A stretch of DNA of 61,954 nucleotides, counting the filler. It is 7 parts of 7 records of this genome, joined end to end, with 100 filler letters (N's around TTAATTAATTAA, not from the genome) between each part and the next. Parts side by side here need not be neighbours in the genome. Positions count along the whole stretch, not along the records: positions 1 to 17,682 come from DRR723986_7963; 6 more parts are not named here. One strand, 5' to 3'. Shown in pieces: positions 3,791-50,297 of this stretch. Numbering within the stretch: position 1 is the stretch's first letter; each line of letters starts with the position of its first letter. Position numbers and translations under genes: made by a program. The notes beneath the pieces were generated by a model. The model had not been told where the DNA came from. It was given only the letters and a program-made list of their open reading frames with translations, and ran no database searches.

Positions 3791-3821
3791 TGTTTACCTT
3801 TTTTAGGTTCAGATGACTAAG
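3791..3821 (+). promoter_or_regulatory. Putative ECF promoter, copy 1 (TGTTTACC-N16-GACTAAG)
   Basis: Exact match to the copies at 10327-10357 (-) and 10562-10592 (+); ends 32 nt before the OmpA ATG. Confidence 0.8.
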
Positions 3822-3853: not shown

Positions 3854-5260
3854 ATGAAGACAATATCTTTTAGAAAAACACTATTCCTGAATGGCGCTAT
3901 CGTCTTAATTCCTATATTTTTTTCACAGGCACAAGTCAAGGAACGTGTAGTAAACCAAGCTAAGGAATCTACAGCAAGCAAGGCAGAGCGAACTGTTGAC
4001 CAAACCATCGAATCGGTGGGTGATGGTATCATCAACGGAGTGAAAGGAGTATTCAAGAAAAAAGACAAAAAGGAAAAAGGCTCCAAGAATGAGATCGGAG
4101 GAGATTCCACTGTGATGGAAGATGGTTTCTCGGATTGGTCTAAGGATAACTCCAGCCCGAATCATTCCAGTGGCCAGGACACTCCCAGCCTATCCAAATA
4201 CACGAAGTTTTCATTTATCCAAGGAGAAGAAATAGTTGTCTTTGATGATTTTAAGCAAGACAACGTAGGTGATCTCCCTGCCTCCTGGATTACAACAGGT
4301 GCTGCCGAAGTGGTCAATTTTGAAGGATTGGAAGGGAATTGGGTTTGGTTCAATAAAACCAAAGGCAATTTTGTCCCTGAGTATTTGAACGATTTTCCTG
4401 AAAATTTCACTTTAGAATTTGATCTGATGTACGATTTTGCATTTGGTACTTTCAGCGGAAGCAGAAGAATCATGCTAGTTTTCTCAGATATTGCCAACCC
4501 GGAAGCAAAGCTTGACTGGGATGGAGGTGGGGATTATTTCAACCTTCAAAAATTGTCAGATAATTACCTTGGTGTTGAATTTTCTGGCAATAGCCATGAC
4601 GGAGGACCTTACATAACTGGTAAAAAAGCGGTTCACACTGAAAAAGGATTGAATTTCAGTAACTCTTTTAATGCCGGTAACCTGATAAATGCAGAAGAGG
4701 CTAATAAGCCGATACACATTTCCATTTCCAGAATGGGAAGAAGAGTCCAGGTATTTGCCAATGAGGAGAAAGTCTTGGACCTTACTGCTGCTTTTCAAAA
4801 AGATGTGAACCTAACCAGTGCCCGATTCTTTGTCAACAATGCGACGGATGCTGACAACTATTACCTAAGCAACATTCGCTATGCGGTAGGTCAACCGGAT
4901 TCCCGCAGCAAACTCCTGGAAAGTGGCAACTACAGCACTTCCGCCATCACATTTAACTCCGGTTCGGCTGAGATTAAACCTGAGTCTTATGCCATCCTAA
5001 AGGAGATAGCCGAAGCCCTAAACGCTGAACCAACTAAATCAGTATCCATAATCGGCCATACAGATAGTGATGGCTCCGCAGAACTGAACCAGCGACTATC
5101 TGAGGAACGTGCAGCTGCTGTAATGCATGCCTTGCAAACCGAATTTGCTGTAAATAACGCCATTGAGACCTCCGGTAAAGGGGCTTCAGTTCCCATCGCT
5201 GAAAACGACACCCCTACTGGAAAAGCGAATAACAGAAGGGTGGAATTTATCCTGAATTAA
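3854..5260 (+). CDS. Secreted OmpA-family protein (beta-rich N-domain plus C-terminal OmpA_C peptidoglycan-binding domain)
   Basis: Signal peptide ending SQA-Q; C-terminal ITFNSGSAEI...GHTDSDG...NQRLSEERA...NRRVEF. Confidence 0.9.
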   Translation: MKTISFRKTLFLNGAIVLIPIFFSQAQVKERVVNQAKESTASKAERTVDQTIESVGDGIINGVKGVFKKKDKKEKGSKNEIGGDSTVMEDGFSDWSKDNSSPNHSSGQDTPSLSKYTKFSFIQGEEIVVFDDFKQDNVGDLPASWITTGAAEVVNFEGLEGNWVWFNKTKGNFVPEYLNDFPENFTLEFDLMYDFAFGTFSGSRRIMLVFSDIANPEAKLDWDGGGDYFNLQKLSDNYLGVEFSGNSHDGGPYITGKKAVHTEKGLNFSNSFNAGNLINAEEANKPIHISISRMGRRVQVFANEEKVLDLTAAFQKDVNLTSARFFVNNATDADNYYLSNIRYAVGQPDSRSKLLESGNYSTSAITFNSGSAEIKPESYAILKEIAEALNAEPTKSVSIIGHTDSDGSAELNQRLSEERAAAVMHALQTEFAVNNAIETSGKGASVPIAENDTPTGKANNRRVEFILN

Positions 5261-5349: not shown

Positions 5350-5775
5350 ATGAAACGACACTATTTCCATCTTCCGGCCTTAAGCTTGATAGCCGTCCTT
5401 TTACTTTCCCACTGCAATGAAAAAGAAGAGCCGGTAACTGACTTTTCTCAATTTGTTCTAGGTGAATGGACGCTCGCAGAAAGCAATTTTATAAATGATG
5501 AGGTGATCGATGAATGCAATTATCAAACGACCTACACTTTTGGCAGCGATGGAAATCTAAACATCAATCCGGTTGCCACAGCCTATGATGAAAACAATAC
5601 CCCCTACTGCACTGCTCCGATAAATGATGGGCTGGGGTTTGATCTCCACTATGGCATCAATGGGAATCGAATGGAAAGTGAGCTGGGGGACGCTACGTTA
5701 ATGAAATCTTCCGAGACAAGCCTTAAGCTAACTTTTGAAAATGAAGATCTTGGGATAGTTGAGTTGACCCGATAG
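5350..5775 (+). CDS. Lipocalin-like lipoprotein
   Basis: Lipobox LLSHC; VLGEWTL lipocalin-like GxW motif; all-beta pattern. Confidence 0.65.
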   Translation: MKRHYFHLPALSLIAVLLLSHCNEKEEPVTDFSQFVLGEWTLAESNFINDEVIDECNYQTTYTFGSDGNLNINPVATAYDENNTPYCTAPINDGLGFDLHYGINGNRMESELGDATLMKSSETSLKLTFENEDLGIVELTR

Positions 5776-5965
5776 AACACCTATTTACTAAATTCAATTT
5801 CAATAAAAGATTTTGGGATTGCTTGAAAAAATTCATTATACATGAGAGCAAAAATGTCATTGAATATAAAGCATATTTAATTTTAGCTCCCCAGACTTCG
5901 ACATGAATTTTGTTAGAATCAATTAAATCCGAATATATTAGTGATATTTTTTTTAATCAACTTAT

Positions 5966-8782
5966 ATGATCACACAAATTCACAAGCTGCTTTGCGGTCT
6001 GATACTGTTTTTCCATACCATCCCTCTATCTGCGCAAAACCTATCGCAAGATACAGTGCATTACCTCAAGCTATATGAGGAAGGAATGGATTATTATATC
6101 AAAGGCGATCACGGTAAAGCAAAGCAATATGTTATAAAGTTAAGTGAGTTGGCTTATAAAAACGGTTGGGAGAATAAATGGGTCGAACACATGATTGAAA
6201 TCAGCAGTTTTGAGCTCTATGATGGAGATTTTGAAAACGCACTGCAAATATTAGATTCTCTAGTTAAGCTATCTGAAGAAGGGAAAATCCGAAAAGAAAT
6301 CAATAAATTCCAAATATATGACTGGTATTCCGGTTTTCTTGCCAATGACGGAGATATAGAGACCTCCCAAGTATTTCTGACCAAAGCTCAAGAACTTATC
6401 CCTAAACTTCCGGCCCAAATGCAGAATACTTCAATGCAGAAGCTAGAAAATGGCCGGGCTCTGAATTTTTATAAATTCGGGGATTTGAGAAGAGCTAAAG
6501 CATCCTTTTTACGATCCATTGACTTACTCCACAAAGCATATTTGGATGGGGTCTATTCTGAAAAAGACGAATATGAGTTTACCAAAGTAATTCTTTATAA
6601 GAATATCGCAAATAATGAAATCTTAGCCGGAGAATTTGCAAATGCCAAATTGTACTTAGATTCTGCCCTTCTGACCTTTTCAAAATTAACCGATCCATAT
6701 TACCAAAATTCACCAATGGCAGCCGCAATCAATAATTCCTTTGGAGATTATTATAAGGGATTGGGAGATTTTGAGCTAGCGGAGAAGGCAATGAAAAATA
6801 GAATAGAAGAATTGGAGAAATATGAAAAAAGAGTCAATCTCCAAATGAGAATAGAGGCAAGACAAAATTTGGCAAACTTATATTTCAAAAACGGCATCTA
6901 CGATCTTGCCAAGTCTAATTATGAGATAAGTTTAAAGTACCTGAAAGACCTTAAAACATCAGAACCTTCTAAGTATCGGTATTTATGGAAAATCATTGAT
7001 TTTTATCAAAATACTAATGAAGACAGTCTGAGTAATCATTTGCTATCAAGAGTCGATTTTGAAACTGATCCCATACGTCTCTACTATAGTGGTGCTGAAA
7101 CTTCAATTGTATCTATGTATGCACTCAAAGCCAATTCATTGGCGAAGGTATCATCGGTAGATGAGGGATGGAATGAGTCCAATTTTTTAGATTTTAACCG
7201 AAAGGCCTTAAGTATATCCAATCAAATAGGCATGCTGAACCAAGCAGGACTAAGCAATTCATTAACAGAGCCCACAAAACTTGCGCTTGACTCCTACATT
7301 GCAAATTTATACCGGCTGTACAAGCGCAATCCGGAAGTGAATACCCTTATTGAGGCCTTAAATGTGATTGAGTTTTCAAATAATAAGAACTATAATGATC
7401 AATTAATTACAGGTCATTTGGCGAGAAACAATCCTGATTCCAGCCTTGTGAATGAGAAAAAAAAATTGCAGCGAAAACTGGACGAGTTGGAGAAAAACAT
7501 TGCTTCAGGGGTAGGTGATATCCTTGTGGATTCCATTGTAAAAGTATCTTATCGGTTAGAGAAAATAAATGATCAGTTAATCGAAGCGATTCCTGAAATA
7601 CAATCAATGGCAGAGTTTCGAGTCAATGAAGATATCCTTAAAGGAATAAATCTAGCTGAAGATCAGCAAGCGTTTCTCTTTTATTATTCGGAAAGTACAC
7701 TCTATATTTTATCAAGGTCAGGAAAGGAAAATGACTGGAATTGGGCAGGTGTTCCGACACAAAATCTAGATGGACTGATTGAAACCTCAAACACCGCTTT
7801 TCGTGAAATTTCAGATTCGGGCTGGCAGCAAGCAGGCAAACAACTTTTTCAAATTCTATTAAAAGGTCGGATTTCTCCAGGATCCAAAAGGCTGGTGATT
7901 TACCCACATGGAAATATTGGACTGATTCCTTTTGCTGCTTTAATCGATGTAAATGACAACTATCTGGTGGAAAATTATTCCATCTCTATCAAGAATAGGT
8001 TTGAGAAGAAAGATAAAAGCTCATTCAGGCCTAAAAAGCCTACTGAAATTCTGGCATTTGCTCCATATTTTGAAAATTCGCAGCAGCAGTTCCAACGAAA
8101 TTTATATGGCTATCTAGGTGGGACCAGACAGGAAGTAGCTGGAATCTCAAGGTATTTCAAAACCAAGCTATACGAAGGACTCTCTGCTACTAAGCAAAAT
8201 TTCATAAGGGAAAGCAAGAACAATAAATTTATCCATTTAGCCACACATGCCTTTGCGGAACCTAATGTTATGTTCTCAAAAATTATATTTTCAGGTGACG
8301 GCAATGAAGATGTACACAGCCTATTTGGTTATGAAATTGCAGGTTTAAATTGGGACGTTGAGATGCTGATTTTAAGCGCATGTCAAACCGGATATGGTAG
8401 ATTCCAACTCGGTGAAGGCATTTCAAGTCTTGCCAAATTATTTTCTGATGCAGGCGCCAAAAGCTTACTATTCACGCTTTGGAAAGTAGATGATTACGCC
8501 AGCGCTGAACTAATGACTCTTTATTACAGCTATCTAGAAGCTGGCTTGGAAAAAGACCTTGCGCTGCAGGCTGCACAGAAATCCTACTTGCAAAACAATG
8601 AGGAAGCTAAAAACATGCCATTTTTCTGGGCAGGATTTGTCGTAAGCGGTGAGGTTACGCCAGTGTATAGAAGCAGTTTGCCTTTCAATGCACTTCTAGT
8701 TGGTTTAGTTATTATCGGATTGCTTATAGTGATCTTAGTAAGGAAAAAAATTGCTAGGACTCGCAAGACAATCAGACACTAA
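5966..8782 (+). CDS. TPR-CHAT (caspase HetF-associated) protease, signal peptide plus C-terminal TM anchor
   Basis: Signal peptide ...PLSA-Q; TPR-like helices; CHAT motifs LVIYPHG.IGLIPFAAL, FIHLATHA (catalytic His), LILSACQTGYG (catalytic Cys), LWKVDD, PFFWAGFV; C-terminal hydrophobic helix followed by RKK. Confidence 0.92.
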   Translation: MITQIHKLLCGLILFFHTIPLSAQNLSQDTVHYLKLYEEGMDYYIKGDHGKAKQYVIKLSELAYKNGWENKWVEHMIEISSFELYDGDFENALQILDSLVKLSEEGKIRKEINKFQIYDWYSGFLANDGDIETSQVFLTKAQELIPKLPAQMQNTSMQKLENGRALNFYKFGDLRRAKASFLRSIDLLHKAYLDGVYSEKDEYEFTKVILYKNIANNEILAGEFANAKLYLDSALLTFSKLTDPYYQNSPMAAAINNSFGDYYKGLGDFELAEKAMKNRIEELEKYEKRVNLQMRIEARQNLANLYFKNGIYDLAKSNYEISLKYLKDLKTSEPSKYRYLWKIIDFYQNTNEDSLSNHLLSRVDFETDPIRLYYSGAETSIVSMYALKANSLAKVSSVDEGWNESNFLDFNRKALSISNQIGMLNQAGLSNSLTEPTKLALDSYIANLYRLYKRNPEVNTLIEALNVIEFSNNKNYNDQLITGHLARNNPDSSLVNEKKKLQRKLDELEKNIASGVGDILVDSIVKVSYRLEKINDQLIEAIPEIQSMAEFRVNEDILKGINLAEDQQAFLFYYSESTLYILSRSGKENDWNWAGVPTQNLDGLIETSNTAFREISDSGWQQAGKQLFQILLKGRISPGSKRLVIYPHGNIGLIPFAALIDVNDNYLVENYSISIKNRFEKKDKSSFRPKKPTEILAFAPYFENSQQQFQRNLYGYLGGTRQEVAGISRYFKTKLYEGLSATKQNFIRESKNNKFIHLATHAFAEPNVMFSKIIFSGDGNEDVHSLFGYEIAGLNWDVEMLILSACQTGYGRFQLGEGISSLAKLFSDAGAKSLLFTLWKVDDYASAELMTLYYSYLEAGLEKDLALQAAQKSYLQNNEEAKNMPFFWAGFVVSGEVTPVYRSSLPFNALLVGLVIIGLLIVILVRKKIARTRKTIRH

Positions 8783-8956
8783 CTTCGGTCTGCTGGAACT
8801 AAAAGCCAACAAGTTAAGTCAATCGCTAATTTAATCGTAAGGTTACCAATAGCTATTCTGATAGGATTGGAAAGAGAATTATCAAAGAGAATAAATAGAC
8901 ATGTTGAAGAGAAGACACTCCTCATTACGCATGTAAATGGTGGCGGAAGTTATTTA

Positions 8957-8994
8957 AAAATTCCCCAGCCCCTTAAAAAGCATTGGGGAATTTT
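8957..8994. terminator. Bidirectional terminator-like hairpin between convergent CHAT and anti-sigma genes
   Basis: Perfect 11-bp inverted repeat AAAATTCCCCA/TGGGGAATTTT. Confidence 0.6.
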
Positions 8995-9014
8995 GATTCT
9001 ACTTGATTCTCACT

Positions 9015-9767
9015 CTATTTATCCAAAACAAGCAGAATTCTCTCCACCTCATCCATCTTATATCCGCTGCTTTTTCTGAGCCGGATCATCTCTTCTTTAC
9101 CCCTTAGGGTATCACCTTTTACAAGATAAGCAAGTGCCATGTACCATTTGGCCTGATCCCGAAGCTGGGTGCCGTCGCTATATATATAATTGTCAAAATA
9201 ATGGATTGCGCTATCGTATTGGCCAAGTTCAAACTTGGTGATTCCTTTATAGAACTGAACATAATCGGTCTGATATGGGAGAATCCTGGTAAACAGACTA
9301 TCAGAAAGACTGTAATTTTTGCTTTCATACGCTATGAATGAGGCTTTCTCCAAATCCTCCGGATTCAACTCTTCTCCACGAGTGATCGGTGAAACTACGT
9401 TGGGATATGCAGTGTAATACGAAAGAAAAGAATCCGTAGCAGGCGCGGAGGAAGTGGTATCAGAAAGGTTTAGGATAAGGACAGTGGCGGCAACCAATAA
9501 CACTATTCCTGCTGCAACCTTCCATAGGTATGGTTTGGCCTGTATTTTCCGAACTTTTTGGCTGCTTACCAACCCCTCCTCTACTCCGCCTAAAAAAGCT
9601 TTGATCTCAGAATGTTTATTTCGGATTATCGCTTCCCGGGTCGCCTGCTGCAACTCAAATTCTTCCCTGAATTCAGCATCGGAGCGAAGCAATTCTTCCA
9701 AAATGAGTTTTTCATCTGCTGTCAGGCTGCCTTTAATGAAACGGTCCAGCAATTCGTTGCTTTCCAT
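9015..9767 (-). CDS. Putative anti-sigma factor: cytoplasmic helical N-domain, single TM, periplasmic TPR domain
   Basis: Start overlaps the sigma stop (TGATG at 9767); LLDRFIKGSLTADE N-terminus; TM WKVAAGIVLLVAATVLIL; TPR FYKGITKFELGQYDSAIHYF...AKWYMALAYL. Confidence 0.8.
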   Translation of the reverse strand: MESNELLDRFIKGSLTADEKLILEELLRSDAEFREEFELQQATREAIIRNKHSEIKAFLGGVEEGLVSSQKVRKIQAKPYLWKVAAGIVLLVAATVLILNLSDTTSSAPATDSFLSYYTAYPNVVSPITRGEELNPEDLEKASFIAYESKNYSLSDSLFTRILPYQTDYVQFYKGITKFELGQYDSAIHYFDNYIYSDGTQLRDQAKWYMALAYLVKGDTLRGKEEMIRLRKSSGYKMDEVERILLVLDK

Positions 9768-10321
9768 CAGTAATCAAATTTTTTGTGTTTGAACGACTCC
9801 TTGAGTGACTTCATACAGCGTGATTTATGGCTTTTCACCACGTCTGGATGATTGTAATCCATAAGTTGCTGGATCTCCTTCATGCTTTTGTTTTCGTAGT
9901 AATAGTACTCGAGGATTTTCCTGCACTTCTCCCCTAGCTTAGCGAGTGACTTTCCCAGGAAGGACACCTTTGGATCCGGTTCTTCGATGAAAAGTTTGGC
10001 TTCTTCATACAATCCCGCAGACCACTCCTGGTCTTCCTTTAATTCCAAGCCAGGTTGCTCTCGTTTCAATCGGGTAAAGAGCATAAATTTCCCCATTGAG
10101 AACAGGTAAGTTTTAATGCTGCTTTTTTCAAGTTCCAACTTTCCGCTCACCGCCCTGTCAAATAAGGCGATGCTTACATCCTGATAGATGTCCTGCAAAA
10201 GCTCTTCTCCCTGATGATACCTTTTGGCAAACTGGAGGAATGGCTCCCTATACAACTTATACACTTCTGCCAGAGCTGATTTATCACCAGACTTAAGTCG
10301 CTCTATAAGAATATCACGCAT
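9767..10321 (-). CDS. ECF-family RNA polymerase sigma factor
   Basis: 184 aa; region 2 QDIYQDVSIALF...SIKTYLFSM; region 4 LGEKCRKILEYYYYENKSMKEIQQLM...VVKSHKSRC. Confidence 0.92.
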   Translation of the reverse strand: MRDILIERLKSGDKSALAEVYKLYREPFLQFAKRYHQGEELLQDIYQDVSIALFDRAVSGKLELEKSSIKTYLFSMGKFMLFTRLKREQPGLELKEDQEWSAGLYEEAKLFIEEPDPKVSFLGKSLAKLGEKCRKILEYYYYENKSMKEIQQLMDYNHPDVVKSHKSRCMKSLKESFKHKKFDY

Positions 10322-10326
10322 TTACC

Positions 10327-10357
10327 CTTAGTCTTAAAAATTGGAATAAGGTAAACA
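10327..10357 (-). promoter_or_regulatory. Putative ECF autoregulatory promoter, copy 2
   Basis: Minus strand reads TGTTTACC ttattccaatttttaa GACTAAG ggtaa ATG. Confidence 0.8.
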
Positions 10358-10561
10358 TATCCTTTTTTTCTTTATTGACAACTAGTTAGTTGACCAATCT
10401 ATAAAAAGAAGCCTTACTTTCTGGCAAGTAGTTACTTAGCTCTATTTTTCAGCTTTTCTTCCTTAGGAATAATACCAGTCGCTTTTCTAGCTATGCAGAA
10501 GAGTCTGTATCAGTGATAATTATCAGATATACAGCCAGTTTAGAAATTTGTAATACTTTTC

Positions 10562-10592
10562 TGTTTACCATTTTCCTCCCACCCAGACTAAG
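10562..10592 (+). promoter_or_regulatory. Putative ECF promoter, copy 3
   Basis: TGTTTACC attttcctcccaccca GACTAAG, ending 24 nt before the ATG at 10617. Confidence 0.8.
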
Positions 10593-10616
10593 ACATAGCA
10601 AACAAAATCAACAGCT

Positions 10617-11399
10617 ATGAACAGATACTCAATTTCTAAAATTTTCCTGCTAGCCTTCTCACTATTTTTTCTGGGAAATGCAGGGGAATGCCAAATCCTG
10701 AAAAAAATCCGGGAACAGATGGCCGTGAAACCTAACTCCGAATCCGCTGAATCAGACGGGGAAAATGCATTAGGTGGAATCGACCTTACTGGCATGATGG
10801 GGCAGACAAAAGATTTCAAAGCCCCCTCCGCTTACAATTTTGACTTTCAGGTCACCATGGAAATGCAGATGGAAAAAGGAAAGTCCATGAATCAGGTATG
10901 GAAGTACAACATCGCAGAAAGTTACTTTGGAATAGAAATGTCCAATATGCTGATCATCTATGACCTGGACAGTGATGTAATGGTGACACTCAATCCCAAA
11001 GATAAAACTTACACAGCCATGTCTACGGCTATGATGGGAATGTTTGGTAATGCTGCTGATGCAGCCGATGATGCCAGTATACCTGAAATGAGAAAGACCA
11101 ATGAGACCAAATCTATCCTGGGCTACACCGCTACCAAGTACATCATGGAGGATGAAAACCTAAAAGGTGAGTTCTGGATGGCTCCTGATGTGGAGTTTGA
11201 CCAGTCAGCCTTTGCCAAATCATTGAGTTCTTACTCTAAAAACCCAGTGCCTTTACCTGAGAAAATGCAGGGATTCATGATGGAAATGACTGCTTTTGAC
11301 AAAAAAGGAAAAGTGACCTCAACAATGAAAGTGGTGCAACTCGGAGAGATAGATCAGATGATCAATATGTCTGACTATAAAAATGGAATGACATTCTAA
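10617..11399 (+). CDS. Secreted DUF4412-like protein
   Basis: Signal peptide; KTNETKSILGYTATKY...GEFWMA...GFMMEM pattern typical of DUF4412/GLPGLI-like proteins. Confidence 0.75.
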   Translation: MNRYSISKIFLLAFSLFFLGNAGECQILKKIREQMAVKPNSESAESDGENALGGIDLTGMMGQTKDFKAPSAYNFDFQVTMEMQMEKGKSMNQVWKYNIAESYFGIEMSNMLIIYDLDSDVMVTLNPKDKTYTAMSTAMMGMFGNAADAADDASIPEMRKTNETKSILGYTATKYIMEDENLKGEFWMAPDVEFDQSAFAKSLSSYSKNPVPLPEKMQGFMMEMTAFDKKGKVTSTMKVVQLGEIDQMINMSDYKNGMTF

Positions 11400-11411
11400 T
11401 ATATCTTGGCT

Positions 11412-12116
11412 ATGAAACCTAAAAATTTCATTTTCACCTTACTTATACTGGCGCTGGCATCTTCCTGCAGCTCTACCACCACAGAATCAGAAGCAGGAAA
11501 ACAGCTCCATTTAAAGACAGTGGTTTCTTCCTGCCTGAAGGATTATTCTGAAGAAAATAAAGGAAAATTTTTTACAGAAACGTTGATCCAAGATCTGGCA
11601 AATGGCAATGAGATCACAGCCGACCATTATGAGCCAGCCCATCTTTACAAATTTTACTGGAAAGAAAAAGGCGTAGACCATTTCATAGGATTTGAAGAAA
11701 TGCAGACAGCCAAAGAGTTGAGCATTCTTAAAGACAAGGGACACAGCCAAAGCTCCACACCCCTAATCGACTATGTAAAAATGACCTACCGGGACAAAAC
11801 CCCAGAAGAACAAACCAGGCTGAACAAGCTATTAGATGAGCAACTGGATAAATCCGAAGATCCAAACGCCTCCGGCACCTCAAATAAAGCTCTCCAAAAA
11901 AAAGGGATGGGGATGGAAACTATGGCCTATGTCCCATTGGATTCCAAGGCAGATTATGCGGTGTACAACAGAAAAAGCTTTAGTCTCTACATGGTCTTGG
12001 GAGATGTGCTCATCACCTTAAGTGCACAGGTGGGACCCTACGGATCTGTAAACGAATCCCTAAGCATTGAACTTGCAAGGAAACTTGCGGATAAAGTCGC
12101 TGAATTATGCATTTGA
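11412..12116 (+). CDS. Hypothetical lipoprotein
   Basis: ATG at 11412; lipobox LALASSC; operonic spacing. Confidence 0.75.
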   Translation: MKPKNFIFTLLILALASSCSSTTTESEAGKQLHLKTVVSSCLKDYSEENKGKFFTETLIQDLANGNEITADHYEPAHLYKFYWKEKGVDHFIGFEEMQTAKELSILKDKGHSQSSTPLIDYVKMTYRDKTPEEQTRLNKLLDEQLDKSEDPNASGTSNKALQKKGMGMETMAYVPLDSKADYAVYNRKSFSLYMVLGDVLITLSAQVGPYGSVNESLSIELARKLADKVAELCI

Positions 12117-12679
12117 TCGTATTGATAATCCTGTACATTCCGATTTTTCTATTCCAAAATGAGCAGTTAAAGAAATTTCCAATTGGTACAGATACTGACC
12201 GTCAACAAACACACCTAGTGTATTTGGAGATTGGTGAACGGGTAGTTTTTGACTCTATGGAAATGGCAAACGCCACGCTTTCCCACTATCCTAACCAGCA
12301 CATATTTAGCATCATGGACAATGAAGGTCAACATATCTCACTGACCTTTGCAGGCAAGGATATTTCTTCAAGAAAGCCCATGGAGTTGAAATTTGACCAT
12401 CCTGGTTTATTCCATGGATATAGTGAGAATGGCGATGTGTTTTTTATTGCTTTTGGAAAACTCGACCAAGAGCGGGATCCAAGACAGATCAAGTACGATC
12501 TTTCCTTTCCCTCAGATATCATGGAAGGCAGATTAACAGTCATCAACTGGACTCCAGAAGAATTTGAATTTGCGTTCGAAGGCAAACTGGGGAAAAGCGA
12601 TGCCGTCGATAAACCGGAGAGTTGGCAACCATTTTCAGGCTATGTGAAAGCGCAAAACTATCAGGAATTCCACCTGTAG
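12107..12679 (+). CDS. Hypothetical exported protein
   Basis: Hydrophobic N-terminus; overlaps the upstream stop by 10 nt; beta-rich. Confidence 0.7.
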   Translation: MHLIVLIILYIPIFLFQNEQLKKFPIGTDTDRQQTHLVYLEIGERVVFDSMEMANATLSHYPNQHIFSIMDNEGQHISLTFAGKDISSRKPMELKFDHPGLFHGYSENGDVFFIAFGKLDQERDPRQIKYDLSFPSDIMEGRLTVINWTPEEFEFAFEGKLGKSDAVDKPESWQPFSGYVKAQNYQEFHL

Positions 12680-12774
12680 GTTTATGCTTGCCGTTTACTG
12701 ATTAAACAAAAACTTCAAAACAGCCACCATAACGCTATTAATATCATTATTCATTTACATCAAACACATCAACT

Positions 12775-13281
12775 ATGAAAACGTTTATTCGAATTATCGC
12801 TGTGGCTTGGTTCACCTTTATTCTGGTCGAATCCAATGCCCAAACTGTCAAAGGAGCCATTTCGGTCGGGAAAAAATCTGAATTGAAACTGGAAACCCGA
12901 TCCGACAACATGATAGATATTTTTATTGACTTCCGAAAAGAAAGGTATCCCATCTTATTTTCTTTTCAGGGAGAGGACATCAAATCAAAAGAGGGCAAAG
13001 AAATCATATTCTTCGAGTTTATTACAGAGGTATATCACAATGGCAAATTGATGGGCAAGACCTCCCGAAATCCAATGCCATACATCCCCGGGGACATGAT
13101 TATAGGCACGGAAGGATTTGATTTCATCTCCCTGCTATCTTACAATGAAAAAAGCCGTGCTTCTCTAAAGGAAACGCCAGGAAAGCTTGCGCCGGGTAGC
13201 TATCAGGTGAAGCTCCTTGCCCGTCCCTTGGAAGCCAAGGGGCAGATCAAGCCTGCCACATTTTCATTCAACATCCAATAG
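12775..13281 (+). CDS. Hypothetical secreted protein (Ig-like beta sandwich possible)
   Basis: Signal peptide ending SNA-Q; C-terminal LAPGSYQVKL strand motif. Confidence 0.75.
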   Translation: MKTFIRIIAVAWFTFILVESNAQTVKGAISVGKKSELKLETRSDNMIDIFIDFRKERYPILFSFQGEDIKSKEGKEIIFFEFITEVYHNGKLMGKTSRNPMPYIPGDMIIGTEGFDFISLLSYNEKSRASLKETPGKLAPGSYQVKLLARPLEAKGQIKPATFSFNIQ

Positions 13282-13288
13282 ACATGCT

Positions 13289-13891
13289 ATGAAGACTAAT
13301 TTAATTAATCGGATTCTATTATTTACTGGCATGTCATTACTGGCTTTTGCCTGCGCCGGATCATCCGAAGATCAAGCCTTAGAAAAAGTTGCCAAAGAGC
13401 TGGGTATGGACAAGGAGAAATTGAAGAACAAGTCCTTCTATTCCTTTGAAATTACAGGAGGCACACTAAACGGGCAGACATTCACCACGCCTGTATATGC
13501 TCAGGGAGGAATTGATAGCCGATGGAATGAGAACACAGAAATAAGTGCCACCACCATAGGTTTTGTAGATCCTCCACAAGGCAATAGTACGTTTAGGATG
13601 ATTTGGGAAGGTGACAAAATTAGTCCTCTAAAGCCAGAAGAAAATCCATTTGGGGAGAATTCCTATATAGAACTGAAGGTGGAGAAAAATGATAAGAAAT
13701 ATACCTTCTTATCCAATGGCGGTTCTTATCAAGTAGTTTCAAAAAACAAGAAAGCCTGGGTGGACCAGATCACTAAGAAAGAGTATCCAATTTTAGATAT
13801 CGAGGCTGAGTTTGAAGGCGATTTTACTGAAACTAACTCAGGAGAAAAAGTGAAAATCAAGGGCTGGGTAAAGGGTTTTGATCCTCGCTAA
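13289..13891 (+). CDS. Hypothetical lipoprotein
   Basis: Start re-called at ATG 13289 (7 nt after the upstream stop); lipobox LLAFAC. Confidence 0.75.
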   Translation: MKTNLINRILLFTGMSLLAFACAGSSEDQALEKVAKELGMDKEKLKNKSFYSFEITGGTLNGQTFTTPVYAQGGIDSRWNENTEISATTIGFVDPPQGNSTFRMIWEGDKISPLKPEENPFGENSYIELKVEKNDKKYTFLSNGGSYQVVSKNKKAWVDQITKKEYPILDIEAEFEGDFTETNSGEKVKIKGWVKGFDPR

Positions 13892-14014
13892 GTGATCTTT
13901 CTTTCGCCCTTTTCTCCGAATATCTAAACCAAATCAGGCAATCAAATCTATGCTGTAGCTGAGCAACCAGCTGCAATAGAGATTCCTTTGCCCATTACCT
14001 AACACCTACTCCCT

Positions 14015-14812
14015 ATGAAATATTATATCAAAACCTTTTTGCTGTCCACTCTTGTAATTCTATTTGGGAACAACTTTCTCAGAGCCCAGACTTTCCCGGT
14101 TCAGGCAACAGGAATATTTACCTTAAACGACGGTAATGAACTGAGGATATTACAGAATCTTACTTCTACACAAATCAACGGAATATTGGCCAATGCCAAA
14201 AAAGAAAAGTTGGCAGATTTTAGTGGGAGTTACAATAAGGACACAGGGAAGGTACTTGCCAAGATGACGTATTGTGACGGCAATAAAGAGCAATTAACTT
14301 TTTTTTTCACCAGGGGCGATGCGAATGTTTCAGAAATTTATTTTGGAACTGCCCCTGATGACAGAAAAGCCATAGGAAACCGAAAAGGAAGAACCAGGCC
14401 AACACTTGCATTTCAATGTGCCGAAGGAACAGCCAATATTCAGGAGCCTTTCTTGGGAAAAGGATCCTGGACCGGGACCTGGAAGACACATCTAGGAATG
14501 ATCAGATTAATCCATATCAATGATATCGCTACAGGCAACGTATTCGTGGTGGGAGATTTTAAAGATACCGGAGTCATCCAACTGATTGATTTTGATGGCA
14601 ATGAAGTAGAAGGAGAATTTACATCCCATACCCAGGGCGACGGTTATTTCAAAATCACCCGGGTCAGCGAAACCAAGTTTGAAGGTACATATAGATGGGG
14701 AATGCAGAGCGAGTGGACTAAGTGGGGAGGAGAGCGCAAAGACGCCAAACTCCCCCTATTGACTTCCGAAGGTGCTCAGCTCTTGGTCAATCGACTATTG
14801 ACAGAATACTAA
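14015..14812 (+). CDS. Hypothetical secreted protein with two predicted small beta-barrel domains
   Basis: Signal peptide ending LRA-Q; Gly/aromatic strand pattern, e.g. SWTGTWKTHLG...FEGTYRWG. Confidence 0.75.
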   Translation: MKYYIKTFLLSTLVILFGNNFLRAQTFPVQATGIFTLNDGNELRILQNLTSTQINGILANAKKEKLADFSGSYNKDTGKVLAKMTYCDGNKEQLTFFFTRGDANVSEIYFGTAPDDRKAIGNRKGRTRPTLAFQCAEGTANIQEPFLGKGSWTGTWKTHLGMIRLIHINDIATGNVFVVGDFKDTGVIQLIDFDGNEVEGEFTSHTQGDGYFKITRVSETKFEGTYRWGMQSEWTKWGGERKDAKLPLLTSEGAQLLVNRLLTEY

Positions 14813-14840
14813 CCAAGCTCAACTTTAACTTAAAAAAATC

Positions 14841-16442
14841 ATGAGAAAACACATTTATATACCCCTATTTCTACTCTTTTTGGCAGGATGGGCACAGGCT
14901 CAGAATTACACAGGTGTATGGAACGCCGCTATGGTGAATGACAAAACGAAAGTGGATACGAACATTGAGTATCATCTCACACAAAATGGCAATACTGTCA
15001 CAGGAGAAATTATCCACAAGAAGGAAAACATGAAGGCTATAGTCACAGGAACACTTGCCAATGGTGAGGTGAACGGCACCTTAAAGTATGATAAAAACCA
15101 GTGGGCATCTCTGGATCAAAAGTTCAGGATTTTCACCAGGCCCACTGACAATGCAACTATTTTTATGCATGAGAGTACAAAAGGTGCACGGTATTTCGGA
15201 GGTCCCCTCTTCAAAAACCAAGCCCTCACCAATCAGCAAGCTAGTAAAGCTCAGGCTGCAACTTCACTACAAAAAGGCGCATTTTCTTCAGGAAGTGGTA
15301 CGGTAGTGCAGCAGTCAACTGCTAAACCTAAAGTGGGCGTAGCAATGGCAACCACACCCACGAAGACAGCCAGAAATATTGGCGGATATTATCGTATAGA
15401 AGGAATGAGTGATGCTAATGGAACCAAGAGAAATCTCTATGTAAATGTAAAAAACTTCCCAGATCCCAAAGACAGAAGTAAAGCGTATGGCGAAGCGTTA
15501 ATTATGGGAGAAGCGTATGGTATTGGATCAGCTCAGAAAAAACTGTTTGGTTATGAAACCAACGGAGATGATATCACAGTCATGTTTGACACGATCTATG
15601 AATTGAATAAAAAGAACACCATGGCAAATGGGCGGGTTGAAGGAATCTATCTGATAGCACCAAAACAAGGCTACAAAATGATCAAAATCAGTCAGGCAGA
15701 AGCAGAGCGGGAGAGTAAAAAGCTGAGTGCTACAGTGAAGGTGAGGGTGGATTATAAGTTTATTTATCTGGCTTCATCCCTTTATTGGGATAAGTCATTT
15801 TTAAACTACAACCTAACAGACAAAGGCTCAATGGCATTGTACGGGACGGGAAGTATCCGTGTTTATAAGGAAACTTCCTCTAACACTACAGAGCTTAAAG
15901 CTATCAATAATGCTTCAGCACGAATTTTTGATACTCCAAAATCAAGAGCTGCAAGCAAGCCTAACCTTTCTTATTTTGATAAAAGCAAAAATCGTTCTTG
16001 GGGAGGTTTAAACTATCATTTCTTTGGCTTCTATAGTTTTGCTAAAGACGCAGATTTCCCCAACCCCCCAGGGGGTGATAAACACACAAGAGGTGCTATA
16101 TTTCCTGTTAATCGTTATCTTGAATTTGAAGTGAGTCGTGCCGCTTTGGAGGGTAAAACAGAACGCATAGCAATTAATGGACATGCGCACCTTTCAAATG
16201 CTCTTCCTTTTGGGGATGCTAATTTCGGGAATATGCATCGTAGAGTTTATCTTCATGAATTGACTGATCAGAGTAAACTTACTGAGGAGGAAAAAAAATT
16301 CAATAGAAAATTAGAAGGAAAAGGGCATCCTCATGCAGGATCATTAGTAAGTCCGCCTTACTATTTTTTTGCAATCAAAAAGGATCAACAATTTTCTACT
16401 CCAGCAGTAATGATCGCTTTTACTGTGGAAATTATTGAATAG
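14841..16442 (+). CDS. Hypothetical multidomain secreted protein
   Basis: Signal peptide ending AQA-Q; NYTGVW...LTQNGNTVTG domain, A/S/T/Q-rich linker, further beta domains. Confidence 0.8.
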   Translation: MRKHIYIPLFLLFLAGWAQAQNYTGVWNAAMVNDKTKVDTNIEYHLTQNGNTVTGEIIHKKENMKAIVTGTLANGEVNGTLKYDKNQWASLDQKFRIFTRPTDNATIFMHESTKGARYFGGPLFKNQALTNQQASKAQAATSLQKGAFSSGSGTVVQQSTAKPKVGVAMATTPTKTARNIGGYYRIEGMSDANGTKRNLYVNVKNFPDPKDRSKAYGEALIMGEAYGIGSAQKKLFGYETNGDDITVMFDTIYELNKKNTMANGRVEGIYLIAPKQGYKMIKISQAEAERESKKLSATVKVRVDYKFIYLASSLYWDKSFLNYNLTDKGSMALYGTGSIRVYKETSSNTTELKAINNASARIFDTPKSRAASKPNLSYFDKSKNRSWGGLNYHFFGFYSFAKDADFPNPPGGDKHTRGAIFPVNRYLEFEVSRAALEGKTERIAINGHAHLSNALPFGDANFGNMHRRVYLHELTDQSKLTEEEKKFNRKLEGKGHPHAGSLVSPPYYFFAIKKDQQFSTPAVMIAFTVEIIE

Positions 16443-17682: not shown

Positions 17683-17782
17683 NNNNNNNNNNNNNNNNNN
17701 NNNNNNNNNNNNNNNNNNNNNNNNNNTTAATTAATTAANNNNNNNNNNNNNNNNNNNNNNNNNNNNNNNNNNNNNNNNNNNN
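17683..17782. other. Artificial contig spacer
   Basis: 44 N + TTAATTAATTAA + 44 N; base composition changes abruptly across it. Confidence 0.99.
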
Positions 17783-17783
17783 G

Positions 17784-49573: not shown

Positions 49574-50123
49574 CTATACCCGCCGCAGCGCCAAGACCGC
49601 GTTTAACCCGCCAAAGGCAAAGGCGTTTGACAGCGCCACATCCACCTTGGCCTCGCGCGCCTCGTTGGGCACGACATCAAGCGCGCATTCGGGATCGAAT
49701 TCTTCATAGCCGATGGTGGGGGCAATCACCCCATCGCGCAGCGCCATGATGCAGGCCAGCAGCTCGACCGCGCCGGTGGCGCCAATCAAATGCCCATGCA
49801 TCGATTTGGTGGAAGATATCATCAGATTATCGGCATGGGGGCCAAACACATCGGCCACGGCGGCGCATTCGGTTTTGTCATTTGCGGCGGTGCCGGTGCC
49901 ATGGGCATTGATATAGCCCACATCTTCGGTGTTAAGCCCTGCATCTTTCAGCGCCCCCGCAATCGCCCGCGCCGCCCCCTGTTTCGAGGGCATCACGATA
50001 TCAGAGGCATCAGATGACATCGCATAGCCCACAACCTCGGCCAGAATTTCGGCGCCGCGCTTTTTGGCATGCTCATAATCTTCAAACACGAAAATCCCCG
50101 CGCCCTCGCCCTGCACCATGCCG
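49574..50123 (-). CDS. Beta-ketoacyl-ACP synthase (FabF-like), 5'-truncated
   Basis: [30 protein letters not shown]. Confidence 0.9.
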
Positions 50124-50223: not shown

Positions 50224-50297
50224 ATTCCGGTGATATAAGTAAGGGCGATTGGTACCCGCTTTGCAGTGGGGATGTTTACGCCGGCAATACGTGCCAC
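50224..50297 (-). CDS. rpsM: 30S ribosomal protein S13, 3'-truncated
   Basis: GTG start, (M)[24 protein letters not shown]. Confidence 0.93.

Follow-up and report, generated by a model that had tools for sequence, protein, structure and literature searches.

The first contig of the 61,954-nucleotide stretch of DNA analysed here (hereafter the window) comes from Algoriphagus and carries a three-gene set that encodes a sigma factor of the extracytoplasmic function (ECF) class, a membrane anti-sigma candidate and a membrane-anchored CHAT protease that is predicted to face the periplasm. The protease is a tetratricopeptide repeat (TPR)–CHAT protein of 938 amino acids (5966..8782, + strand), recognized from its open reading frame (ORF), Pfam, an orthologue alignment, AlphaFold2 (AF2) and hydrophobicity. 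Convergent to its gene are those of the single-pass anti-sigma candidate, of 250 aa (9015..9767, − strand; ORF, family profile and AF2), and of the sigma factor, of 184 aa (9767..10321, − strand; TIGR02937 match), whose stop codon overlaps the anti-sigma start as TGATG, coupling the two genes. The initial annotation of this region had described the three ORFs, the TGATG overlap, the IHLATHA and LSACQTG motifs of the protease, its signal-like N terminus and its C-terminal anchor, and all of these are present as it described them.

Judged from its gene neighbourhoods, this triad is a conserved, widespread and unnamed module that is independent of CRISPR, and we consider it highly probable that sigma, anti-sigma and CHAT function together. 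Few types of protease are known to make the first cut of ECF anti-sigma factors. We set out below the evidence for the linkage, the predicted properties of the three proteins and the case for and against the CHAT protein being such a protease.

Linkage of the three genes across Bacteroidota

Orthologues of the 250-aa anti-sigma factor were found in Algoriphagus and Belliella only (21 matches). With an anti-sigma profile to which two paralogues had been added (the A2 profile), the number of cluster representatives matched was 19,202 at E ≤ 1e-3 and fell to 9,582 at E ≤ 1e-10 and to 746 at E ≤ 1e-30, and the database names of the anti-sigma relatives were those of TPR or hypothetical proteins only. 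In the family of B. kenyensis (Cyclobacteriaceae), the A2 profile matched 105 of 121 genomes at E ≤ 1e-5, with up to 15 matches per genome; among the matches listed for this family, all 150 reached E ≤ 1e-13.

We examined 60 loci from this family with 7 kb on each side, comprising ranks 3–42 of the list and 20 weaker matches (E 5e-25 to 9e-15) that were picked by hand blind to their context, several partial or interrupted matches being skipped, and scanned them with custom hidden Markov models of all three components (CHAT domain, anti-sigma and sigma). A CHAT ORF lay within 7 kb in 45 of the 60 loci (75%). It stood no more than 1 kb downstream of the anti-sigma gene and convergent with it, as in the window, in 28 loci, at the same distance and co-directional in 8, and farther off or upstream in 9. 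The remaining 15 stretches had no CHAT gene, and in five of these the contig ended less than 2 kb past the anti-sigma gene. Five complete genomes held 22 CHAT matches in 30.8 Mb (up to 12 occur in some genomes), so that ~1% of 14.7-kb stretches would contain a CHAT gene by chance, compared with the 75% observed. Viewed from the protease, 11 of the 21 strong CHAT genes in these five genomes adjoin a gene of the anti-sigma family. In seven family or phylum loci (L075, L084, L095, L096, L098, L099 and L101), we noted a recurrent alternative layout, with CHAT on the strand opposite to the sigma gene and ~3.2–3.9 kb upstream of it.

The linkage extends beyond one family. A phylum-wide sample of 201 genomes contained 18 with a match at E ≤ 1e-12, and CHAT was present within 7 kb at 20 of the 30 loci taken from these. 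The initial annotation had supposed that similar triads exist in other Bacteroidota, and they do recur in both the Cyclobacteriaceae and the phylum-wide samples; it had also reasoned that its proposal would fail if homologous sigma/TPR pairs usually lacked a CHAT neighbour, and CHAT was present at 45 of 60 and 20 of 30 loci. Paralogous triads with 22–36% identity are linked in the same way, for example in B. kenyensis (L015) and A. locisalis (L016). Across 54 triads, Mantel tests on pairwise distances gave a correlation of 0.61 for the anti-sigma with the CHAT domain next to it and of 0.79 for the anti-sigma with sigma, with neither value reached in any of 2000 permutations. Common descent adds to such correlations, which thus fit joint inheritance and are no proof of co-evolution.

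An all-against-all clustering of ORFs of at least 110 aa from all 90 loci recovered the anti-sigma at all 90, sigma at 77 and CHAT at 66, and the next most frequent family at 6; sigma was directly upstream of the anti-sigma in 77 of the 90. Because these three families alone recur, the triad appears to be the entire conserved unit, without cas, CBASS (cyclic-oligonucleotide-based anti-phage signalling system) or other partners. An OmpA-like gene was considered as a fourth component and rejected, being present in the orthologous group and one paralogous locus (L015) and not recurrent in the 90 loci. At L015, the paralogous B. kenyensis triad is flanked by a gene (5712-7097, − strand) for an OmpA-family protein that shares an unusually long N-terminal region with the OmpA-like protein of the window (32% identical).

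Predicted features of the three proteins

Pfam placed the CHAT domain at residues 622–896 of the 938-aa protein (E 5.2e-53; 180.8 bits against a cut-off of 24). H757, H761 and C806 are invariant among nine CHAT orthologues, and we take as the putative catalytic dyad His761, the second His of IHLATHA (codon at 8246..8248, + strand), and Cys806 of LSACQTG (codon at 8381..8383, + strand). Both catalytic residues aligned in 66 of the 67 CHAT ORFs of the survey loci, and the sole exception was a 122-aa fragment at a contig end. On this alignment, the dyad is kept across the linked CHAT family and the putative proteolytic activity is under conservation.

The N terminus of the protein (MITQIHKLLCGLILFFHTIPLSAQ, residues 1–24) resembles a signal peptide, and its C terminus consists of a 21-residue hydrophobic stretch (905–925) followed by a basic tail, RKKIARTRKTIRH. 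Our topology assignments were based on such sequence features together with family-wide hydrophobicity counts. Among 54 full-length CHAT ORFs of the survey loci, a C-terminal hydrophobic anchor (a strong 17-mer within the final 45 residues, mostly with Lys/Arg after it) was found in 52 and an N-terminal hydrophobic segment in 48. Given both features, the body of the protease is predicted to be periplasmic and tethered to the inner membrane, in the same compartment as the TPR domain of the anti-sigma factor, whose own periplasmic location is predicted from its position after the membrane helix; the initial annotation had placed both proteins likewise. We considered whether the C-terminal helix could be a sorting signal like PEP-CTERM and rejected this, as the survey tails have no conserved motif before the helix.

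The TPR array that the initial annotation assigned to the CHAT protein is supported in part. The AF2 model has helical repeats at residues ~28–560, with a mean predicted local distance difference test (pLDDT) score per ten-residue block of mostly 72–94 over residues 31–400 and lower, patchy values after that, but the Pfam matches in this region (TPR_12 and TPR_8, E 0.003–0.006) are weak and below cut-off. The CHAT domain itself was poorly modelled from nine sequences (pLDDT 24–46 over ~690–840), so that the Foldseek search, in which TPR proteins and separase were the top matches, concerns the repeat region alone. A profile of the CHAT-domain family searched against the PDB matched DdvA best (8ROT/8RW5, E 2.2e-9), followed by the TPR-CHAT protein of craspase at 2.5e-7; a single-sequence search with the CHAT protein returned designed TPR proteins alone. 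The two halves of these proteins differ greatly in conservation. Among 39 full-length proteins, the CHAT domain could be aligned in 741 of 741 pairs, whereas the 650-aa N-terminal region was detectable by BLASTP in 271 of the 741, and the N-terminal half of the window CHAT (residues 1–560) was found in 2 of 251 family genomes at E ≤ 1e-15.

The 184-aa protein is assigned to the ECF (group 4) sigma-70 factors by its match to TIGR02937 (sigma70-ECF, residues 16–175; 55.2 bits against a cut-off of 42.9), with Pfam region 2 and region 4 matches below cut-off. The anti-sigma candidate belongs to no Pfam family, and its profile matched TPR proteins alone in the PDB. In the AF2 model, three N-terminal helices (3–67, pLDDT ~60–75) are followed by a helix at 80–101 that corresponds to the membrane span, a low-confidence linker (102–132, pLDDT <50) and a helical TPR-like domain (136–249). 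Helix 80–101 is the single hydrophobic membrane helix, and its position is kept across the family. The sole sequence hint for the N-terminal domain is a sub-threshold NCBIfam match to PRK13920 (E 0.0012, 18.6 bits against a cut-off of 225), and residues 1–79 contain no Cys.

Among orthologues, the periplasmic part of the anti-sigma factor is conserved more than the cytoplasmic part. Across 149 diverse representatives, conservation peaks in the ten-residue block 121–130, with N123 present in 148 and R130 in all 149. The block belongs to a motif, L-[YF]-x-x-[YN]-[FY]-x-P-Y-P-N-V-V-x-P-I-[VT]-R-G, which reads ...YPNVVSPITRG... in the window and falls in the low-confidence linker. The juxtamembrane copy in the window, SFLSYYTAYPNVVSPITRG (residues 113–131, with Arg130; 9375..9431, − strand), is, on the basis of this conservation, a candidate docking or cleavage site. 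Across the 90 survey loci, which are more divergent, 71 of 90 anti-sigma factors retain the motif Arg. An invariant motif in the anti-sigma, together with a variable N-terminal region in the CHAT protein, is compatible with the conserved CHAT domain being the partner. A search of longer anti-sigma relatives for fused forms gave no fusion to CHAT, which is weak evidence. The sole longer relative found was P0253, a 486-aa metagenome protein that may be a sigma/anti-sigma fusion, since its source names it a sigma24-family protein.

Candidate promoter and cassette exchange at the locus

The motif TGTTTAC-N16-AGACTAA is common to ten orthologous regions upstream of sigma and ends a few bases before the start codon. 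Within the window, the pattern TGTTTACC-N15-AGACTAAG has three matches at up to three mismatches, against 0.22 expected. The first, an exact match whose end lies 5 nt from the sigma start codon (10327..10357, − strand), is a candidate autoregulatory promoter. A second exact copy (10562..10592, + strand) precedes a divergent DUF4412 gene cluster encoding four secreted or envelope proteins (DUF4412, 260 aa; 236 aa; 190 aa; 168 aa; 10617..13281, + strand), which are predicted regulon members from synteny and the motif upstream. The third copy, TGTTTACC-N15-nGACTAAG with one mismatch (3791..3821, + strand), is a candidate sigma-dependent promoter that lies before the OmpA-like gene and occupies the same position in orthologous loci. 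This gene (3854..5260, + strand) encodes an OmpA-family envelope protein of 468 aa (Pfam OmpA at residues 366–461, E 5.5e-22), also a predicted regulon member, and is syntenic in L001–L008 and L014. Beside it, in the window and in relatives, is a gene for a small secreted protein or lipoprotein of 141 aa without a known family (5350..5775, + strand).

Relatives carry the motif at the same positions wherever the genes fell inside the retrieved stretch. The 5.4-Mb genome of A. locisalis has just three exact copies of the pattern, each of them at this locus (G002:C3:43188-43217, 50032-50061 and 50263-50292), and no copy of a reversed control. The candidate sites in the window precede envelope-protein genes and the sigma operon, and none precedes CBASS or CRISPR defence genes. 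If the motif is the promoter recognized by sigma, as we infer, the regulon would be small and local, consisting of the sigma operon, the OmpA-like and lipoprotein genes and the four secreted proteins.

The 17.7-kb contig that holds the triad has a G+C content of ~40%, compared with ~58% for 17784-61954, and a spacer at ~17684-17783 (N, then TTAATTAATTAA, then N) joins these unlike stretches; 17784-61954 is probably from another organism and unconnected with the triad. The top protein matches of the first contig are to Algoriphagus, which belongs to the Cyclobacteriaceae (Cytophagales, Bacteroidota); its anti-sigma, for example, is 86% identical to that of A. locisalis. We detected no cas gene or PADLOC family in this ~17.7-kb contig, and PADLOC returned zero matches for the CHAT, sigma and anti-sigma proteins. 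The initial annotation's claim that the contig lacks cas genes thus stands, although for 17.7 kb alone, the window being made of joined pieces. At the start of the contig is an IS3-type transposase (rve integrase core and HTH_21; 150-977, − strand), with genes for a glyoxalase-family protein (1571-2065) and an AraC-family regulator (2141-2956) beside it.

Comparison of close relatives revealed that the CHAT gene varies while its surroundings do not. Orthologues of the sigma/anti-sigma pair were present at nine genome loci, in eight of which one or two CHAT genes follow immediately after the anti-sigma gene, co-directional with the pair and 27–31% identical to the window CHAT in the C-terminal part alone. 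Between A. locisalis and the window, the flanking genes are 74–97% identical, sigma 97% and the anti-sigma 86%. The same slot, between the anti-sigma gene and the lipoprotein/OmpA genes, is occupied by non-orthologous CHAT genes in inverted orientation (window 5966-8782 compared with L001 8789-11854). Two tandem CHAT genes are found in L002, L004, L005 and L008. In L003, a metagenome-assembled Algoriphagus, tandem CHATs form one frame of 2081 aa (8720-14962, + strand), which could be a real fusion or reflect an assembly or stop-codon difference.

True orthologues of the window CHAT (P0022–P0029) are 86–48% identical to it. For five such window-type proteins, equal contig sizes (7029, 17002, 38703, 47788 and 10141) suggest that they are encoded on the same metagenome contigs as anti-sigma orthologues; metagenome scans for window-type CHAT loci retrieved none. 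In B. kenyensis, a window-type CHAT that is 50% identical still follows the OmpA-lipoprotein genes. Such cassette swapping among close relatives hints at diversifying pressure, perhaps, as a speculation, from phages or competitors.

Proposed mechanism, its alternatives and known systems

The explanation that we favour for these observations is a signalling unit that spans the inner membrane. In this model, the single-pass anti-sigma factor would hold the ECF sigma factor at the inner membrane, and a flexible linker with the conserved motif would connect its small periplasmic TPR domain to the membrane helix. The TPR-CHAT cysteine protease would be exported and tied to the same membrane by its C-terminal helix, where its variable N-terminal repeats may sense a periplasmic cue, most likely a protein. 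The conserved caspase-like domain would then act on the anti-sigma factor, most simply through a site-1 cut in the juxtamembrane linker, after which a site-2 protease and cytoplasmic proteases would free sigma. Once free, sigma would activate its own operon, the OmpA-like/lipoprotein genes (probably with CHAT) and the DUF4412 cluster. The analysis itself provides the gene linkage, the domain content, the conserved dyad, the predicted topology, the conserved linker motif and the promoter motif; we infer the binding, the cleavage and its site, the signal and the release of sigma alike. Arg-specific cleavage is frequent in this protease clan, and Arg130 is a candidate site in the linker.

We attach different weights to the parts of this model. 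That the module is a three-protein trans-membrane signalling unit, a two-polypeptide counterpart of the myxobacterial DdvA, seems to us evenly poised between true and false, and that CHAT serves the anti-sigma factor as site-1 protease has close to an even chance, if slightly under it. The broadest form of the proposal is doubtful, although it deserves to be stated: that Bacteroidota hold a large family of periplasmic caspase-like sensor-proteases, acting in trans as site-1 enzymes that cut at the linker Arg, with their hypervariable TPR halves exchanged as cassettes at fixed sigma/anti-sigma loci. The cassette pattern resembles an innate-immune-like surveillance of foreign or damaged periplasmic proteins.

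Several observations weigh against assigning the site-1 role to CHAT. In the orthologous group, CHAT is always downstream of a motif-bearing operon, in either gene order, so that membership of the regulon fits as well as a regulatory role. Anti-sigma factors that have CHAT beside them keep the motif Arg (52 of 65) as often as those that do not (19 of 25), which means that the motif is not specific to CHAT-linked loci. Linkage is also incomplete: 10 of the 21 CHAT genes in the five complete genomes have no such anti-sigma nearby, CHAT is missing within 7 kb at 10 of the 55 informative family loci and 10 of the 30 phylum loci, and the orthologous sigma pair of B. kenyensis is separated from CHAT by 57 kb of the same contig. 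The A. locisalis CHAT is 27% identical to that of the window over the C-terminal 430 aa alone, with undetectable N-terminal similarity. Such divergence beside a near-identical sigma and anti-sigma is hard to square with a tightly co-adapted enzyme and substrate, unless the conserved parts alone mediate recognition. As to the anti-sigma assignment, the N-terminal domain had no significant match to known anti-sigma domains, and no anti-sigma factor in the PDB matched at E ≤ 1. A complex prediction with CHAT residues 52–900 and anti-sigma residues 101–250 scored 0.40 against 0.24 for the best control; this difference falls short of the required margin of 0.20, and the result bears on binding in neither direction.

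An alternative that would accommodate some of these points is that CHAT is a periplasmic output protease controlled by sigma, serving in envelope quality control or attack on foreign proteins, while the anti-sigma factor is inactivated by ordinary site-1 proteases or by its own TPR signalling. CHAT follows the sigma/anti-sigma genes in L001–L008 and the OmpA-lipoprotein genes in the window and L014, all of these operons being motif-bearing, and among the 36 adjacent CHAT genes of the family sample, 8 read in the same direction as the pair. The exchange of the CHAT cassette beside a near-identical sigma and anti-sigma, and the retention of the motif Arg where CHAT is missing, also favour this reading. 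However, the other 28 of the 36 adjacent CHAT genes are convergent and hence outside the sigma operon. We also found no bipartite motif common to the sigma-proximal and CHAT upstream regions of 25 loci (mean 11.68 of 16 for real pairs versus 11.78 for mismatched pairs, in a crude test with guessed start codons). Moreover, no other output gene recurs, and an ECF pathway with one membrane-anchored protease as its sole conserved target would be unusual. In the fused protein DdvA, in addition, TPR-CHAT is on the input side (PMC11506125). We consider it unlikely that CHAT is solely an output.

We give a similarly low probability to a sensor complex in which the anti-sigma factor is a partner or pseudosubstrate inhibitor of CHAT, as securin is of separase, with the true substrate elsewhere and with dissociation or a conformational change signalling to sigma. 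This alternative draws on the same linkage and co-compartment evidence as the site-1 model, and sequence data cannot tell the two apart. The invariant linear motif could be a pseudosubstrate, both partners have TPR domains, which typically mediate protein–protein contacts, and separase is among the top fold matches of the repeat region. The dyad kept in 66 of 67 CHAT ORFs indicates that catalysis matters and does not reveal which protein is cut. Against a complex of this kind, release from a single-pass anti-sigma factor usually needs proteolysis (PMC11506125). A coincidental or purely historical neighbourhood of two abundant gene types (Bacteroidota average 22.5 ECF sigma factors per genome (PMC7826278), and some genomes have up to 12 CHAT matches) is very improbable, given linkage at 75% of loci against ~1% expected, its persistence in paralogues at 22–36% identity, under several gene orders and across the phylum sample, and the recurrence of nothing besides the triad in 90 loci.

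If the broadest form of the proposal is true, regulated intramembrane proteolysis would gain its first demonstrable trigger of the caspase type, and because enzyme and substrate would be separate proteins, reconstitution in vitro could be easier than for DdvA. With an abundant split module, a candidate site at Arg130 and a candidate promoter for a reporter, the question is open to direct test. The model also offers a likely role for proteins labelled just 'tetratricopeptide repeat protein' or 'CHAT domain-containing protein'.

The closest known system is DdvA/DdvS of M. xanthus, in which an anti-sigma factor is fused to a periplasmic TPR-CHAT region, with a flexible linker facing the dyad, and self-cleavage has been proposed (PMC11506125). 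As in DdvA/DdvS, the triad combines an ECF sigma factor under a candidate single-pass membrane anti-sigma factor with a TPR-CHAT region that is predicted to be periplasmic and has a His–Cys dyad. The flexible juxtamembrane linker is the proposed CHAT target of DdvA as well, with RseP acting next, and CHAT cleavage is unproven there too. Unlike the fused DdvA, the anti-sigma factor and TPR-CHAT are encoded here by separate genes on opposite strands, each product being anchored in the membrane separately; a signal peptide and a C-terminal anchor are predicted for the CHAT protein, and the anti-sigma factor has its own small periplasmic TPR domain and, lacking Cys, no CHCC zinc site in its N-terminal domain. 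Also unlike the DdvA locus, the contig has no CBASS or CRISPR genes and none recur in the 90 loci. Without the fusion, the zinc anti-sigma domain and a defence regulon, the triad appears to be a variant of the DdvA design and not a DdvA-type member. DdvA-like proteins have been reported only in some Myxococcota and one Comamonas (PMC11506125), a sparse distribution compared with the split form, which is common in Cyclobacteriaceae.

The initial annotation had drawn its precedents from CRISPR loci. That comparison was limited to cytoplasmic systems and missed both DdvA and the CHAT/TPR neighbourhood of ECF54; on our analysis, the idea of a caspase-like site-1 protease is less unprecedented than the annotation held. 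Within the literature covered on CHAT with ECF or anti-sigma factors (Table S7 of PMC11506125 and the later part of the PMC7826278 supplement being outside its scope), we found no description in Bacteroidota of a periplasmic TPR-CHAT protein and a TPR anti-sigma factor encoded as a pair by separate genes.

As proposed for the triad, type III-E craspase (Cas7-11/Csx29/Csx30/CASP-sigma) and the type III-B SAVED-CHAT system couple CHAT proteolysis to the release of an ECF-type sigma factor. Their CHAT domains are distantly related to the one described here (E 2.5e-7 to 2.4e-3), and these systems act in the cytoplasm, are switched on by RNA or cyclic oligoadenylate and belong to CRISPR loci, whereas the CHAT protein here is predicted to be exported and anchored. 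Unlike craspase, the triad has no cas genes in its 17.7-kb contig, and its candidate substrate is a transmembrane anti-sigma factor without similarity to Csx30.

In Actinobacteria, ECF54 sigma factor genes have conserved CHAT/TPR genes nearby, and regulation of the sigma factor by proteolysis has been proposed (PMC7826278; PMC8999054). The triad is similar in that ECF sigma genes have CHAT/TPR neighbours. ECF54, however, lacks an anti-sigma factor, has subtilase and carboxypeptidase-regulatory-like partners and is restricted to Actinobacteria, whereas here an anti-sigma candidate is present, the ECF54 partners do not recur in 90 loci and the hosts are Bacteroidota. ECF03 differs in its promoter, the quoted −35 element being TTAAACC, in contrast to the candidate promoter TGTTTACC / AGACTAAG of the window.

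In its overall logic, the proposed pathway resembles RseA/DegS/RseP and RsiW/PrsW/RasP, in which a single-pass anti-sigma factor is likewise co-transcribed with its ECF sigma factor and has a periplasmic domain that, until removed, presumably keeps the site-2 protease from acting. It departs from this classical regulated intramembrane proteolysis in its first step, where the proposed site-1 enzyme would be a clan-CD, caspase-like cysteine protease encoded beside the pair, in place of a serine protease or metalloprotease.

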